Positions 57,655-62,855 of a DNA stretch of 64,000 nucleotides are shown here, piece after piece. Position numbers and translations under genes: made by a program. The notes beneath the pieces are model-generated. The model ran no database searches. It saw only the letters and a list, made by a program, of their open reading frames with translations, and was not told where the DNA came from. Source of the DNA: Halocatena marina (GTDB lineage Archaea; Halobacteriota; Halobacteria; Halobacteriales; Haloarculaceae); contig NZ_JALLPK010000001.1 of assembly GCF_023276375.1 (NCBI RefSeq), positions 3,721,391 to 3,785,390 of the forward strand. The letters are read 5' to 3'. Within the stretch, counting starts at the first letter, position 1. Every line of letters starts with the position of its first letter.

Positions 57655-58818
57655 TTATCTAATGACATCGAGACCATTGTTGGTCTCGATAGGATCCTGT
57701 CCGCCGTCGGATTGCGCGCTTCCGAACTCCGTTTCTGTCTCCGTGTTGACCTGATCCAGGGCAGCACGGCGTGAAGCATCTGCCTGCTTTTGTGTTGTTG
57801 GGCCGAGTATTTGGGCACTCTGAACGCCCGTCATGATCGCCATGACACGGACTTTGCCCTTGTACTCTTCTTGAATGCGCGCACCCCAAATGACGTTTGC
57901 GTGGGCTTCGAGTCGCTCGGTGATCCGTTGAGCGATTCCCTCAGCCTCCTTGAGTGTGAGGTCTGGACCGCCGGTAATGTGGACCAGCCCACCGGTTGCG
58001 CCTCGATAGTCGACATCGAGTAGTGGGTGGCTCATTGCGTCGCGGACGACCTCTTCGGTTTTGTTCTTATCCTGGGTCTCACCAACAAGCATGACTGCAA
58101 CACCACCTTGACCCATGATGGCGGTCATGTCTGCGTAGTCGAGATTGATGAGCGATGGTTGAGTAATCGTCTCGGAGATACCCTTGACTGTTTCGGCGAT
58201 GATCTGGTCCATCACCGAAAACGCCTTTCCAATCGGGAGATTTGGGACGTAATCGAGCAGCCGATTGTTATCGAGGACGATGATAGAGTCGGCCTCGTTA
58301 CGAAGCTGCTCGAGTCCCTCTTCTGCTTTGACGGTCCGTGCCCGTTCGACGTTGAACGGGGTTGAGACCATTCCGACGACGATCGCACCCAGCTCCTTTG
58401 CAACTTTCGAGACGACAGGTGCCGCCCCGGTGCCCGTGCCGCCACCCATGCCAGCCGTGACGAACACAAGGTCGGCACCCGAGAGAACATCTTTGACCGT
58501 TCCTCGAGCCATCTCTGTCGCGCGCTCGCCCATTGCGGGATCGCCACCCGCACCGAGTCCTTGCGTGAGTGTTTTACCGACGAGAACTTTCGTATCGGCC
58601 TCGATCATCTGTAGGTGCTGCTTGTCAGTATTGATCGCAACTGTGTCTGCACCTTCGACGCCAATATTGTAAAGCCGATTAACCGTATTGTTCCCTGCAC
58701 CGCCACAGCCAACGACAACAATACGAGGATCGCCGAACTCGTCGATGTTTCCCGCATCTGCCATCTCACGCTCTTCGTCCTCAGCGTGTTCGAGCGCGTC
58801 GTTGACGAGTTCTTGCAT
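57655..58818 (-). CDS. ftsZ2: Cell division GTPase FtsZ (type 2, by its cdrS-linked context)
   Basis: Tubulin signature [17 protein letters not shown]-binding GCGGAGNN, T7-loop NxDxxD-like region and an acidic C-terminal peptide. The ATG start was verified. ftsZ2 is assigned because the small RHH gene (cdrS) lies immediately upstream, as in Halobacterium and Haloferax. Confidence 0.9.
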
Positions 58819-58820
58819 CG

Positions 58821-59000
58821 TCAGGCACGCGCCCACGGACGCTTATTTTCCCGTCGTTGACGCTCCGCGTTCTCTTCGTTAATCATATCACGAACAGCGG
58901 ACCGAATCGCCTCGCTTCGGTTCGGGAACTCACCCGTTTCGACCAGCTGTTCCACTGCTTCGATCTGTTGTTTTGGAATCCGTAGTGTCACACGCTCCAT
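58821..59000 (-). CDS. cdrS: Ribbon-helix-helix (CopG-like) small protein, CdrS-like cell division regulator
   Basis: Start moved to [40 protein letters not shown], a canonical RHH. Its stop lies 3 nt upstream of the ftsZ start. Confidence 0.65.
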
Positions 59001-59009
59001 GGTTTTCCC

Positions 59010-59122
59010 CTTTCCGGTAAGACGATCAGACGCACGTCCGCCCCGCGTCTTACACGGCGAAATCACACGAAAGCGACCGAATCACTCCACACGATTCGCC
59101 GTGTAAGACGATCGTCTTACGC
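59010..59122. promoter_or_regulatory. Nested inverted repeats built from the octamer GTAAGACG/CGTCTTAC in the cdrL-cdrS spacer: four copies, including a perfect 18-bp palindrome GTAAGACGATCGTCTTAC and a 14-bp inverted pair CGTCTTACACGGCG...CGCCGTGTAAGACG
   Basis: Seen directly in the sequence. The position upstream of the cdrS-ftsZ2 transcription unit and downstream of cdrL suggests an operator or structured leader. Confidence 0.5.
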
Positions 59123-59224
59123 AGGTGTGTGCATTATCGCCGGTGTAATAAATCTTTGCCCTATGTATGACATTGCCGTCTGATACAGTGCAAATAGATC
59201 AGGAGATGGTGTAAAATTAAATAT

Positions 59225-59767
59225 CTATGTCTGATCGAGAACGTCCGCCGCAGGCGTGCGACGGCCGCAGCTGGGGCAGAACGACCAATCAGAGCGAATT
59301 TCATCACCACAGTCACAGAACACCCGCCGACTCGATTTTTCTCCACAGTTGGGACAGTAAACGTGGGGTTCCGAAAGTGGTTCACCGCACTGAGAACACT
59401 GTTTACGTTTTGCCTCGGATTCATCCTCTGGCGTAGTACGCGTCTTACACTTTTCAGCTGATTGTGACGACTCATTGTCCAGAGACGCCTCATGCTCTCC
59501 GTCTACGGTGATGTTTACGTTGATATCTTGTGGCTCTGATCGTGTAAACGCGCCTGTGGAACGTTCTGTGATGAGTTCGTCGACTCGCTCGCGCACGATC
59601 CGATCGATTTCGATCCCAGCGTCGGGAGCAGCACGAGAATCAGACGTCTCGACAGAATTTTCGAGATAGGAGCGTAGCGCTTCGCGCATGATCGCGCTCT
59701 TGGAGGCATCGAACTCCTCCAACTGGGCAATGAGATCATCGTCTGCGCGAAACGTGATCTTGCTCAT
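59225..59767 (-). CDS. cdrL: RHH-domain transcription regulator with C-terminal zinc ribbons, CdrL-like
   Basis: N-terminal RHH MSKITFRADDDLIAQLEEF...IMREALRSYL. C-terminal double zinc ribbon CSQCG...CPNCG...CDCGDE...CPSCG. Confidence 0.65.
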   Translation of the reverse strand: MSKITFRADDDLIAQLEEFDASKSAIMREALRSYLENSVETSDSRAAPDAGIEIDRIVRERVDELITERSTGAFTRSEPQDINVNITVDGEHEASLDNESSQSAEKCKTRTTPEDESEAKRKQCSQCGEPLSEPHVYCPNCGEKSSRRVFCDCGDEIRSDWSFCPSCGRRTPAADVLDQT

Positions 59768-59902
59768 TCGTACCGTCGTTGTTTCCCAAACTATTTTAAC
59801 GTTGGTGCCAACGTCATACGTCCGTCAGTCACACACCAGAATGGTTCACTCCGGCGAAAAAAGACAAGGGTTAAATTGGGGTTAGGACATACAAATGAAT
59901 GA

Positions 59903-59976
59903 CCGCTCTTAGCTCAGTCTGGCAGAGCAGTCGACTGTAGATCGACTTGTCCCCCGTTCAAATCGGGGAGAGCGGA
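59903..59976 (+). tRNA. tRNA-Tyr (anticodon GUA), no encoded CCA
   Basis: Hand-folded cloverleaf: acceptor CCGCUCU/AGAGCGG; U8 A9; D-stem GCUC/GAGC; anticodon stem GUCGA/UCGAC with loop CUGUAGA (anticodon GUA); 5-nt variable loop; T-stem CCCCG/CGGGG with loop UUCAAAU; discriminator A. Confidence 0.9.
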
Positions 59977-60219
59977 CTTCCTGTCACACAGCATCGTGGG
60001 AGCCGTGAATAGCGATGTGTCTGGAATCCGTCTCGGTATGATCTGAGTCAGTCGTGCCGAAGGGATGACGCATTTCACGTCGAGAAGAGTAGATTTGAAT
60101 AGTTGCCAATCCCATTCGAATACTCTCCGTTCTATTCTCCGAAATTAGATGATTCAACCACCAAACCAAATGACTGGCTGTTAATAAGCGGCCAGAAAGC
60201 ATATTCCGAACATCTCTAA

Positions 60220-61950: not shown

Positions 61951-62855
61951 CGTATCCTGTATCTGATCTGGGACTGTCCCGATCCTTCCGGGTCGGTTAC
62001 CCACACCAGAACAAATTGTCACCATCTGATACAGTCCAGACCACGAGACCTACTTCCCGAAGAAGTCCGTATCAAATATCGGTGGCCTGATGAGAAAACG
62101 AACGAATCTTTCGAGGCTACGGTCTCAAACAATTGCTAGCTGTGCCCCCCTGTTGTGACTGTAGCTGTGGACGTGATTGATTGGTACAGGCGGTGTACCA
62201 ACGTCGAGCAGTAGATGCTAAACGCAGTAGCACCATTACTGTCGTATACTCGAACGGATCTGCTTGTTCTATGTTTGTAAGTCATGAGTGCTATTGTCTT
62301 ACGCAATCTGTATCAGAGCAGAATTTATTATGGCGTTGTAGTAGTGATCTCACGATCGTTCTCTACGACTGTTCTGCAGCTCCAAGATCGGTAGGTGCTA
62401 CTCAACTTCCTCCTCTGATTGCTGCTGTTAGGTCCTGTTTACGAAGCCAATACCGCATTTATCGGCACTGAGACGCTCTCTCGTGGAACTGATACAGCGG
62501 AATACATTTCGTTCAGAGAACCGAAAACGATGCACTCATATTGCACTTCTAACTATATTGTTCCCATATCTCTTGTGTAATTATATCTGCGTATTGGTAG
62601 TACCGCTCGATTTCTGGTTCTCGAACGAAATATATAATTTCGATTGCATCAACTGATCGGTTCGTGTTCTGACTAGAATGTAGTACGTAAGACATCTAAC
62701 GTCATTCAGAGAGAAGGAACGACCCCTGTCTTATGTGTTGTATACAAACATGATCTCAGTGTACGCAATCTGTTTGAACGAGAACCACTGCACGCGAATC
62801 CGACGAGGCCCTGAATTGGCGTATCACTTCAGTCTGTGCTACGGTGACACGTGTC

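Follow-up and report, generated by a model that had tools for sequence, protein, structure and literature searches.

The locus formed by cdrL, cdrS and ftsZ2 raises the question of what a group of near-identical octamers is doing in the spacer between its first two genes. CdrL, CdrS and FtsZ2 constitute the best-studied transcriptional division circuit of FtsZ-using archaea, and the octamers GTAAGACG/CGTCTTAC had been proposed, in an earlier note, either as operator sites for ribbon-helix-helix (RHH) proteins or as a stem-loop acting as a terminator/attenuator. The analysis of the window (the whole 64-kb stretch of DNA in which the locus lies) and of orthologous loci leads us to favor, with somewhat better than even confidence, the view that cdrS-ftsZ2 has a single cis-regulatory module, acting at both the DNA and the RNA levels, with the octamers as its conserved core. 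The operator part of the earlier interpretation is plausible, the terminator/attenuator part is not supported, and the long-range pairing of box 1 with box 4 and of box 2 with box 3 had been missed (Table 1).

Table 1. [quoted passage not shown]
Feature	Position	Strand	Remarks
ftsZ2	57655-58818	(-)	387 aa from ATG at 58818; Tubulin and FtsZ_C domains
cdrS	58821-59000	(-)	59 aa, ribbon-helix-helix; NCBIfam and Pfam matches
ATGGAGCGTGTGACAC	58985-59000	(-)	cdrS codons 2-5; contains box-like heptamer GTGTGAC (codons 3-5)
cdrS-ftsZ2 5' leader RNA, predicted, ~120 nt	59001-59122	(-)	from folding, covariation and covariance model
SD-like GGGG	59007-59010	(-)	within leader
Box 4	59017-59024	(-)	CGTCTTAC on sense strand; 3' strand of predicted helix A
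V2	59025-59045	(-)	variable; short predicted hairpin C; all four pairs (helix 6) change on both sides
Box 3	59046-59053	(-)	GTAAGACG on sense strand; 3' strand of predicted helix B
V1	59054-59102	(-)	49-nt variable hairpin extending predicted helix B
Box 2	59103-59110	(-)	5' strand of predicted helix B in RNA; half of palindrome
18-bp palindrome GTAAGACG-AT-CGTCTTAC	59103-59120	(-)	boxes 1 and 2; about +1/+3 to +20 of predicted cdrS promoter
Box 1	59113-59120	(-)	5' strand of predicted helix A in RNA; half of palindrome
Predicted cdrS transcription start	59120-59122	(-)	from TATA-box distance
cdrS-ftsZ2 TATA box	59146-59152	(-)	TTTATTA on sense strand; consensus TTTATA
Box 0	59165-59171	(-)	GTCATAC on sense strand; consensus GTCTTAC, general GTNNNAC
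T-rich stretch ATATTTAATTTTAC (sense strand)	59205-59222	(-)	directly after cdrL stop codon; lineage-specific
cdrL	59225-59767	(-)	180 aa; Pfam profile matches
Box -1	59441-59448	(-)	GTAAGACG on sense strand, within cdrL frame, 328 nt upstream of box 1

The cdrL-cdrS-ftsZ2 architecture reported earlier holds when the genes are compared with Pfam and NCBIfam profiles. The cdrL product scores 38.2 bits with CdrL_M (PF24252), whose cut-off is 27, and ends in a double zinc ribbon (DZR, 38.2 bits; Zn_ribbon_3, 37.8 bits), and its gene lies directly upstream of cdrS, as expected for CdrL. Its N-terminus gives a weak RHH_1 match (18.2 bits, below the cut-off of 20.5), and the sequence MSKITFRADDDL...SKSEVMREALR found there is invariant among the 44 orthologues compared. 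The protein runs from an N-terminal MSKITFRADDDL ribbon through the CdrL_M region and an acidic linker to the double zinc ribbon. The cdrS product is recognized by the NCBIfam equivalog NF058555 ('transcriptional regulator CdrS', 112.4 bits against a cut-off of 100) and by RHH_1 (33.6 bits against 20.5); at least 120 cdrS homologues are listed, all of them haloarchaeal among the matches listed. The ftsZ product matches TIGR00065, the generic FtsZ equivalog, at 406 bits, and its synteny with cdrS points to FtsZ2, the protein known as HVO_0581 / VNG0192G, rather than FtsZ1. The gene follows cdrS immediately and in the same orientation, and an alternative GTG at 58836, which would overlap cdrS, is less likely as its start. 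The 224-bp length given for the cdrL-cdrS spacer (59001-59224) is correct; the cdrS-ftsZ2 gap, previously counted as 3 nt, is 2 nt (58819-58820) from the cdrS stop codon (58821-23) to the ATG. The proteins of the locus are already known, and it is the leader and operator anatomy that is new.

Five GTAAGACG/CGTCTTAC octamers occur in the whole window, all within 432 bp, where 2.2 scattered copies are expected, and none of 1000 dinucleotide shuffles of the window placed even three within 440 nt. The four spacer copies and the perfect 18-bp palindrome described earlier are present. The fifth copy (59441-48), inside cdrL, had been omitted, and the '14-bp inverted pair' is indeed an inverted pair, with a perfect length of 16 nt (59046-61 with 59095-110, 33 nt between the arms). 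Another perfect inverted pair, of 11 nt, joins 59017-27 with 59110-20. The two half-sites of the palindrome lie 10 bp apart from centre to centre, or about one helical turn, as expected of an RHH operator.

Conservation was followed in 80 orthologous loci across Halobacteria (salt-loving archaeal species) and in a diverse subset of 39 leaders less than 85% identical to one another. Throughout the 80 loci, the octamers are almost invariant and keep fixed positions. Conservation of the palindromes in orthologous spacers had been named beforehand as a check on their importance; the boxes proved invariant or nearly so in the diverse leaders, with boxes 1, 2 and 4 unchanged in 39 of 39. The 200 nt that precede cdrS hold 21.8 heptamers per kb, compared with 0.2 per kb elsewhere (81 sequences, 524 kb outside the leader), and no palindromic heptamer pair was found elsewhere in these 524 kb. 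In the Haloarcula and Natronomonas lineages box 3 takes the degenerate form GTAAAC, and boxes 2 and 3 are lost in one Haloquadratum genome. Most species have a palindrome spacer of 2 nt, with values of 1 to 3 nt when genera are compared; such variation is easier to reconcile with an RNA junction than with a rigid operator. Viral contigs scanned for GTAAGACNNNNGTCTTAC gave 65 matches, all unrelated and mostly in low-GC contigs without cdrS; the box cluster was absent from all but one, and there was no sign of the operator in haloviruses.

The position of the promoter places the boxes with respect to transcription. In an ungapped promoter alignment of 46 species anchored on box 1, the TATA box is the best-conserved block upstream of that box (TTTATA at -32..-27) and starts 32 nt upstream of the box 1 G. 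Because the spacer boxes lie downstream of this conserved TATA box, the palindrome would cover the predicted cdrS start, with all four spacer copies in a 5' leader of ~120 nt. In the same 46 species, the palindrome overlaps the predicted start and core promoter, the location expected of an RHH operator. In Haloferax volcanii, an identical palindrome is found at the site its authors targeted as 'promoter/TSS', and the bicistronic cdrS-ftsZ2 mRNA of ~1,500 nt fits a leader of about 120 nt. In this species the transcript is processed at a site 2 nt before the cdrS AUG, and a 2,638-nt transcript over all three genes is also listed. Co-expression of cdrL with cdrS-ftsZ2 is only conditional. The accessible portion of the H. 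volcanii TSS table of Babski 2016 lists no sense TSS for cdrS.

At the RNA level, a nested pairing is predicted for the leader, in which boxes 1 and 4 form one helix and boxes 2 and 3 another, closing a three-way junction. Its parts would be helix A (box 1:box 4), helix B (box 2:box 3, continued by the V1 hairpin) and hairpin C (V2). The length of V1 is kept (46-50 nt in most species) while its sequence is not, except for a conserved G(A/G)TT(T/C)C on the 3' side. Folding the leader of the window gives the nested structure at a minimum free energy of -57.4 kcal/mol (z -4.74), and RNAalifold also returns box 1:box 4 and box 2:box 3 as nested helices. The pairs that extend the boxes are complementary more often than expected from shuffled partners, in 73% and 63% of species for box 2:box 3, where 48% and 43% are expected, with CG to GC swaps, and in 90% against 78% for box 1:box 4, with GC in 30 and AT in 6 species. 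In the same anchored comparison, neither a box 3:box 4 hairpin nor pairing outside box 1:box 2 was more complementary than expected, and the nested fold was preferred to both. Within helix A, a single pair covaries clearly (GC 32, AU 8).

Covariation over the whole leader points in the same direction. In a MAFFT alignment the covariation score is 0.115, compared with 0.073 in shuffles, and none of 500 shuffles reached the observed value; the interior of V1 is not resolved by MAFFT-only alignments. A covariance model seeded on Halorubrum gave an alignment in which 31 of 37 pairs change on both sides (18.2 when shuffled), counts that are biased towards the model structure because the alignment is fitted to it. 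Its score is 0.26, against 0.098 when shuffled and 0.03-0.06 when partners are slid. Within Halorubrum alone, covariation is not significant because there is too little variation. When the halves of V1 were compared with chimeric combinations, a species' own halves folded 6.5 kcal/mol better, and ranked in the top 5% in 16 of 39 species. Applied to the window, the covariance model had a sole match, at 58998-59123 (49.2 bits). The compensatory base-pair changes seen across species, in part on the model-fitted alignment, are what is expected of a structured cis-regulatory leader. A search of the 4,227 families of Rfam 15 gave no match even at E up to 10, only chance-level miRNA and sRNA similarities far below gathering scores, and the three-way-junction leader RNA is previously undescribed.

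Related boxes are also found where this fold does not reach. Box 0 lies 51-52 bp upstream of box 1 (-52..-46), just before the BRE/TATA region, and hence outside the transcript made from the cdrS promoter. GTNNNAC occurs at -52/-51 in 37 of the 46 species, where the background per offset is 0.3, and the outer GT...AC is kept while the central triplet varies or flips in several lineages. Box -1, of the form CGTAAGAC(G/A), is a nucleotide-level island inside an otherwise unalignable cdrL linker, and its heptamer is present in 61 of 80 loci. Its codons here are TGT AAG ACG (Cys-Lys-Thr). At RKT/CKT sites, (C/T)GT AAG AC(G/A) is used in 62 of 65 cases, with CGT accounting for only about 18% of cdrL Arg codons, and in Halocatena the Arg has changed to Cys with the heptamer retained. 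The distance from box -1 to box 1 is 284-373 bp, without helical phasing. Codons 2-5 of cdrS, which include the rare codons CGT and ACA, are near-invariant at synonymous sites, with a codon entropy of 0.15-0.26 bits compared with 1.3-2.0 bits for later Arg codons; a search for a pairing partner for these codons gave only inconsistent local hairpins.

Since box 0, box -1 and the GTGTGAC of cdrS are not explained by the leader fold, they point to sequence-specific recognition by a protein. In Halobacterium salinarum, the sole reproducible ChIP-seq peak of CdrL is the region upstream of cdrS-ftsZ2, which makes CdrL the most likely binder, and the octamers at the start site probably bind it. The reading of the repeats as an RHH operator is plausible on these grounds for part of the array: the 18-bp palindrome and the upstream box, which lie on either side of the TATA box and over the predicted start, are its candidates, in view of the boxes outside the fold and the CdrL ChIP-seq data.

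The two-level module that we favor would then work as follows. In the DNA, as suggested by position and by the published ChIP-seq, the palindrome GTAAGACG-NN-CGTCTTAC on the predicted start would be the candidate core operator, occupied by an RHH tetramer, and together with box 0 and the box inside cdrL it would make up the probable CdrL operator. A regulator sitting at the start site would block RNA polymerase, and the upstream box could aid or modulate binding. Transcription would begin 0-2 nt before box 1, and in the resulting leader the 1:4 and 2:3 pairing would form a three-way junction with two lineage-specific inner hairpins, in which the 5' end is buried and the SD-like GGGG and the AUG remain outside the junction. 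Such a leader would most likely affect mRNA stability, processing or translation of cdrS-ftsZ2. The need to remain complementary to boxes 2 and 1, which are constrained by the protein, would keep the operator sequence in boxes 3 and 4.

It could instead be that the octamers matter just as RNA, in a self-contained riboregulator whose DNA is read by no protein. We consider this unlikely, but it has much to account for it: the strong covariation of the leader helices, the variable length of the palindrome spacer, the retention of partial pairing where box 3 is degenerate in Haloarcula, and the alternating orientation of six boxes in most species. This explanation would also have box 0 and box -1 compete as pairing partners in read-through cdrL-cdrS-ftsZ2 transcripts and so remodel the leader, with which the three-gene transcript listed for H. 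volcanii agrees. However, four-way complementarity accounts for slow change and not for class-wide invariance. Moreover, box 0 keeps just its GT...AC, and flips of the central triplet would destroy pairing; by inspection, the flanks of box 0 and box -1 have no obvious complementarity to their putative partners. CdrL also occupies the region in vivo in Hbt. salinarum.

If a protein does read the boxes, it might be CdrS in place of CdrL, as autoregulation, or both RHH proteins. Several observations fit: the CdrS beta-strand MERVTLRIP is invariant in 46 of 46 species, deletion of cdrS lowers ftsZ2 expression in Hbt. salinarum, and the CdrS motifs of H. volcanii span -41 to -110, a range that includes box 0 with its distance of about -50 from the start. 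A resemblance of the CdrS motif to the aCcr1-box has been stated, and the core of the aCcr1-box, as read here, is GTA(A/G)NTAC, near GTAAGAC; Natronococcus carries GTGTAATACAC at the upstream position. However, the 18 sites of CdrS ChIP-seq in H. volcanii do not include the cdrS promoter, and the CdrL ChIP-seq of Hbt. salinarum does peak there. Binding by CdrS, alone or together with CdrL, appears quite improbable.

The leader itself may do more than the two-level module with CdrL as the probable binder asks of it. As boxes 1 and 3, and boxes 2 and 4, are equal in sequence, the RNA can switch between two folds, one with 1:2 and 3:4 hairpins and the other with the nested 1:4 and 2:3 helices. 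A ligand or RNA-binding protein selecting between them would make the leader a sensing riboregulator and not a passive stabiliser, a speculation to which we give a low probability. The selectors envisaged under it are c-di-AMP, or CdrL or CdrS acting on RNA, and it would couple growth state to FtsZ2 synthesis. In H. volcanii, cdrS and ftsZ2 are among the most upregulated genes when c-di-AMP is lowered. Folding and the terminator scan made no terminator or SD-sequestering stem evident as an expression platform in the leader.

At the opposite extreme, every box could be a protein site in a DNA operator array, with RNA pairing an unselected by-product of inverted repeats. The conservation of the box sequence is what protein sites require, and in one Haloquadratum genome three repeats follow one another in direct orientation, spaced by 10 bp. 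Against this, the variable segments keep their pairing through compensatory changes and a conserved length, the box-flanking pairs covary in the 1:4 and 2:3 registers and not in 3:4 or outside 1:2, and boxes 3 and 4 show no phasing in their distance to box 1, which together leave this explanation with little probability. A terminator/attenuator stem-loop separating the cdrL transcript from the cdrS-ftsZ2 unit, as also suggested earlier, is scarcely credible: the spacer does hold long stable hairpins and cdrL is just conditionally co-expressed with the other two genes, but the repeats are downstream of the cdrS TATA box and thus inside the cdrS transcript, no T run (at least 4) follows any stem, the only T-rich tract lies upstream of all spacer boxes, and a scan for bacterial-type promoters and terminators, otherwise uninformative for an archaeon, gave no terminator-like site in the spacer. 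That T-rich tract may be the oligo-T terminator of cdrL.

Most haloarchaeal mRNAs are leaderless, and long structured 5' leaders are rare. Since the present one is kept in the whole sample and belongs to the master division operon, it probably matters. The candidate operator, consisting of the palindrome and the flanking GTNNNAC boxes, offers a base-resolution target for what CdrL recognizes, and the structured leader with its defined helices offers another for the reported post-transcriptional control and c-di-AMP dependence of cdrS-ftsZ2. If transcribed operator half-sites serve as the closing helices of the RNA, this would explain why the helices are invariant in sequence, and the arrangement of operator and leader would be an unusual regulatory economy. 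The sensing riboregulator, should it prove true, would be to our knowledge the first riboswitch-like controller of archaeal cell division, built from a transcribed operator.

Among known systems, the classical RHH operators (Arc, the met-boxes of MetJ, CopG, omega) consist of short half-sites, inverted or direct, spaced about one helical turn apart, with RHH dimers binding cooperatively, one to each half-site, in an operator that overlaps the core promoter. These are bacterial, plasmid or phage systems, and we know of none in which the operator doubles as the closing helices of a structured leader RNA. The met-box AGACGTCT and the present palindrome have AGACG/CGTCT in common, a likeness that may be coincidence. 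Riboswitch leaders such as the ydaO/kimA c-di-AMP riboswitch likewise have a multi-helix junction in the 5' UTR, covarying stems and invariant nucleotides close to the junction; here, in contrast, the invariant nucleotides are in helices and not in loops or junctions.

Closer in biology is aCcr1 of the Sulfolobales with its box at cdvA, which is likewise a small RHH regulator of the main division gene, with a box kept at equivalent positions across a whole order and, when bound, proposed to block formation of the pre-initiation complex (PMC9976878). The two differ in the sequence of the box (the 9-bp A(T/G)G(A)TA(G)A(T/G)TACN compared with GTAAGAC here) and in the division machinery, which is ESCRT in that system and FtsZ in this one (PMC9976878). 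No RNA structure built from boxes is described for aCcr1 (PMC9976878), and viral copies of the present palindrome were not found in the contigs scanned. The nearest relative is the CdrL/CdrS-FtsZ2 circuit of Halobacterium salinarum and Haloferax volcanii itself (Darnell et al. 2020, PMC7439475; Liao et al. 2021, PMC8406309). It has the same three genes in the same order, the same 2-nt cdrS-ftsZ2 junction and, in H. volcanii, an identical palindrome. The published circuit includes CdrL on the intergenic region in vivo and a cdrS gene with TATA box, TSS and 5' UTR. The main texts of these papers define no CdrL motif, palindrome or leader structure, and the strings 'motif' and 'palindrom' do not occur in that of Darnell et al. 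(PMC7439475). To this circuit, the present analysis adds as newly described a layout of six to seven boxes, a predicted three-way-junction fold, and boxes within cdrL and at cdrS codons 3-5.

The three co-oriented genes, cdrL, cdrS and ftsZ, make up an ordinary example of the known CdrL/CdrS/FtsZ2 locus. The architecture proposed earlier from the sequence is borne out by Pfam CdrL middle-region and CdrS equivalog matches above their cut-offs, and the 224 bp given for the cdrL-cdrS spacer agrees. The match of CdrL to the generic ribbon-helix-helix (RHH) family is sub-threshold in Pfam; CdrS shares 95% identity with its Halocatena pleomorpha counterpart, and the window has a G+C content of 55%. 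The gap before ftsZ, put at 3 nt, is 2 nt in the sequence. The mechanical ftsZ ORF begins at GTG 58836, overlapping the cdrS end, but ATG 58818 is the likelier start and reproduces the 2-nt cdrS-ftsZ2 junction of H. volcanii (517343/517346). The cdrL transcript is probably leaderless, because a TTAAAATA element sits ~32 nt before its ATG, in contrast to the ~120-nt leader predicted for cdrS. A tRNA gene lies divergent from cdrL, and H. volcanii cdrL is likewise adjoined by one.

Coordinates of features in the window
Feature	Position	Strand	Remarks
ftsZ	57655-58818	-	ATG 2 nt past cdrS stop codon
cdrS	58821-59000	-	59 aa; NCBI CdrS equivalog, 112.4 bits (cut-off 100)
ATGGAGCGTGTGACAC	58985-59000		cdrS codons 1-5
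Covariance-model match	58998-59123		49.2 bits
Box 4	59017-59024		spacer octamer
Box 3	59046-59053		spacer octamer
V1 motif	59058-59066 region		GATTTCG
Box 2	59103-59110		spacer octamer
Palindrome	59103-59120		perfect, 18 bp
Box 1	59113-59120		spacer octamer
Predicted cdrS start	59120-59122		0-2 nt ahead of box 1
T-rich tract	59205-59222		directly past cdrL stop codon
cdrL	59225-59767	-	180 aa; Pfam CdrL middle region, 38.2 bits (cut-off 27); double zinc ribbons
Box -1	59441-59448		octamer inside cdrL
TTAAAATA element	within 59768-59830		~32 nt ahead of cdrL ATG
tRNA-Tyr(GTA)	59903-59977	+	
AT-rich stretch	62000-62855		~850 bp, largely without ORFs
TTG ORF	62181-62471		96 aa
Heptamers	62296, 62687, 62853		GTAAGAC/GTCTTAC
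TACGCAATCTGT	62300, 62763		repeat

Five copies of the octamer GTAAGACG/CGTCTTAC are present in the 64 kb, all between 59017 and 59448, four of them in the spacer (boxes 1-4) and one within cdrL. When the window was shuffled 1000 times with dinucleotides preserved, three or more octamers within 440 nt were never seen. The four spacer copies and the perfect 18-bp palindrome described in the earlier note are confirmed; its 14-bp inverted pair exists, but the arms are perfect over 16 nt (59046-59061 with 59095-59110). A perfect 11-nt inverted pair joins 59017-59027 with 59110-59120. Further away, an AT-rich stretch that has a single ORF of at least 90 aa holds three GTAAGAC/GTCTTAC heptamers inside a span of 560 nt and also carries the repeated TACGCAATCTGT; this group may have arisen by chance (rough p 0.01-0.02) or may mark a second target.

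Scanning genomes with CdrS yielded 80 loci spread over many genera (among them Halorubrum, Haloferax, Halobellus, Haloarcula, Natronomonas, Haladaptatus, Halorussus, Natronococcus, Halovivax, Haloquadratum, Halocatena). Upstream of cdrS they share a sense-strand layout: box 0 (GTCTTAC-like), the TATA box, boxes 1 and 2 (GCGTAAGACG-NN-CGTCTTACA), a variable segment V1 of ~48 nt, box 3 (GTGTAAGAC(G/A)), a variable segment V2 of 19-34 nt, box 4 (CCGTCTTACC), and an SD-like GGGG(G)AA followed by the cdrS ATG. Boxes 1 and 4 are invariant at every base, and box 2 mostly so, among 39 leaders of <85% mutual identity. Heptamer density reaches 21.8/kb in the 200 nt before cdrS versus 0.2/kb in the remaining 524 kb of 81 sequences, where no palindromic heptamer pair was found; viral contigs scanned for halovirus copies of the palindrome gave none. 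Since the boxes are near-invariant in the orthologous leaders, the lack of conservation that the earlier note named as grounds for rejecting its reading is not what is found. In Haloquadratum walsbyi J07HQW1 (L045), boxes 2 and 3 are replaced and box 4 is retained; around the predicted start, at about -129 to -103 relative to the cdrS ATG, are three direct repeats (GTATGAC, GTAAGAC, GTATGAC) with a spacing of exactly 10 bp. Direct repeats with this spacing around a start are an arrangement typical of RHH operators.

Promoter geometry was read from an ungapped alignment of 46 species, with the first G of box 1 as anchor, in which box 0 occupies -52 to -46, a BRE-like block -42 to -34, and TTTATA -32 to -27. 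Archaeal TATA boxes are centred ~27 nt upstream of the start. From this position of the TATA box, cdrS initiation is predicted 0-2 nt ahead of box 1; the palindrome would then span roughly +1/+3 to +20, with the four spacer boxes all inside a leader of ~120 nt. Such a start and leader agree with published H. volcanii data: a TATA box, +1 and 5' UTR were drawn for cdrS (PMC8406309), and CRISPRi spacers 'close to the transcription start site' (CCCTCTGTGTGATTATC-GCGTAAGACGGTTGTCTT and GACGGTTGTCTTACAGCT-ACCCGACGG...; PMC8406309) show that H. volcanii has the same palindrome at that place. Its bicistronic mRNA of ~1,500 nt, minus the two reading frames, leaves about 110-120 nt. The searched text of the Babski H. 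volcanii TSS table lists no sense TSS at cdrS. The other suggestion made for the spacer, a stem-loop acting as a terminator or attenuator between cdrL and cdrS, is rejected because the repeats lie downstream of the cdrS TATA box; no T run follows any stem, a terminator scan of the spacer returned nothing, and the only T-rich tract directly follows cdrL.

Besides the box conservation and the geometry relative to the TATA box, the comparison establishes nested RNA helices with covariation. RNA folding, proposed earlier as a check on the spacer, gave a stable three-way junction for the predicted leader (MFE -57.4 kcal/mol, z = -4.74), in which box 1 pairs with box 4 (helix A), box 2 with box 3 (helix B), V1 forms a long hairpin atop helix B and V2 a small one. 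RNAalifold returned identical nested helices from two independent alignments. When positions flanking the invariant boxes were compared in fixed register with shuffled partners, helix B flanks paired in 73% and 63% versus 48% and 43% expected, with CG to GC exchanges, and the helix A flank in 90% versus 78% (G-C in 30 species, A-T in 6); no excess was found for a box 3:box 4 helix or for pairs lying outside box 1:box 2. The covariation score of the MAFFT alignment was 0.115, against 0.073 ± 0.007 with shuffling (0/500 reaching 0.115) and 0.03-0.08 with partners slid. V1 differs in sequence between genera, and its halves from one species fold 6.5 kcal/mol better than cross-species chimeras (own-half fold in the top 5% for 16/39). 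A covariance model seeded on 20 Halorubrum leaders found one sense match at the cdrS leader in 46 of 48 sources (none at E ≤ 0.01 in L072 and L073), with four weaker antisense matches at the same places and nothing elsewhere. In its alignment both sides had changed in 31/37 pairs versus 18.2 ± 1.5 shuffled, and the score was 0.26 versus 0.098 shuffled and 0.03-0.06 slid; fitting to the model inflates the paired fraction, and the same-column controls are still far lower. Halorubrum alone, with too little variation, showed no covariation, and Rfam 15 held no matching family. A G(A/G)TT(T/C)C(G) motif is kept on the 3' side of the V1 hairpin in all loci (GATTCG or GGTTTC in Halorubrum; GGTTTC in Haloferax and Haloarcula), paired in some MFE folds and in an internal loop in others.

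Several box-like features are not explained by this fold. Box 0, upstream of the TATA box and fixed 52 bp from box 1, retains GT...AC in 37/46 species with central triplets CTT (21), CAT (8), AAG (3), TTT (2) and ATG (2), some representing the reversed orientation; this is compatible with recognition of a pseudo-palindromic 7-bp site by a two-fold-symmetric protein dimer, and not with base pairing. In Natrialbales (L050, L079, L029, L041), an inverted pair GTAAGACAC ... GTGTCTGAC replaces it at about -65 to -40 from box 1, directly ahead of a T-rich TATA, and Natronococcus (L049, L062, L064) has a perfect palindrome GTGTAATACAC upstream of TATA that resembles the aCcr1/CdrS-type motif. Box -1, CGTAAGAC(G/A), lies within the cdrL reading frame in 61/80 loci and encodes an Arg-Lys-Thr island amid an acidic, otherwise unalignable linker. 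(C/T)GT AAG AC(G/A) is used at 62/65 such sites; in the cdrL background CGT makes up ~18% of Arg codons, and ACC, which accounts for 28% of Thr codons, appears at the sites just once. Halocatena has Cys for Arg (CKT) with the heptamer retained. Together, this codon bias and the surviving heptamer indicate that the constraint acts on nucleotides. Haloarcula has two copies, the second directly before the first zinc-ribbon cysteine. Within cdrS, codons 2-5 (GAG CGT GTG ACA) show no synonymous variation in 44-45/46 species, use the rare codons CGT and ACA, and produce GCGTGTGACAC, containing the box-like heptamer GTGTGAC; codons 1-5 are almost invariant at synonymous sites across the 46 species. 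Similar strings (GCGTGTGAC or GCGTCTGAC) recur in V2 of many species, and no consistent pairing partner was found for the codon 2-5 element.

As binder of the boxes, CdrL is the leading candidate, because its only reproducible genomic ChIP-seq site in Hbt. salinarum lies upstream of cdrS-ftsZ2 (PMC7439475) and none of the 18 CdrS sites in H. volcanii is at its own promoter (PMC8406309). No CdrL motif was described in the Hbt. salinarum study (PMC7439475). The N-terminal ribbon MSKITFRADDDL is invariant across the CdrL orthologues compared, which would match the invariant boxes. CdrS, whose ribbon is as invariant, is a possible binder of lower rank: box 0 sits where CdrS motifs usually fall, and a resemblance between the CdrS motif and the aCcr1-box has been noted (PMC9976878). 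The operator reading is plausible. CdrL, as a dimer of dimers on the start-site palindrome, could repress or gate initiation, with cooperative contacts added by box 0 and perhaps also by box -1 and by the cdrS coding-sequence box. Once transcribed, the leader would bury its own 5' end in helix A, leaving the SD-like GGGG and AUG outside the junction, and its fold might then influence stability, processing or translation. Boxes 3 and 4 may retain operator sequence simply because they have to go on pairing with boxes 2 and 1, which the protein constrains. Several published observations are in line with this scheme. A H. volcanii processing site at 517533 (-), 2 nt upstream of the cdrS AUG (517531; PMC8303175), and the 'RNA of unknown function' HVO_0582s annotated at that locus (PMC8406309) hint that the leader is perhaps cleaved off as a separate small RNA. 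Ribo-seq/RNA-seq discordance in Hbt. salinarum suggests post-transcriptional control of the operon, and lowering c-di-AMP raises cdrS and ftsZ2 transcript levels.

Altogether, the analysis chiefly adds a conserved structured leader RNA made from operator repeats, plus boxes beyond the spacer; a literature search found no description of the boxes or the leader structure. CdrL recognition and post-transcriptional control of ftsZ2 thereby become directly testable. In function, the nearest analogue is aCcr1 of Sulfolobales, from which this system differs in box sequence, in the number and spread of boxes, and in having a covarying three-way junction formed by its transcribed boxes.
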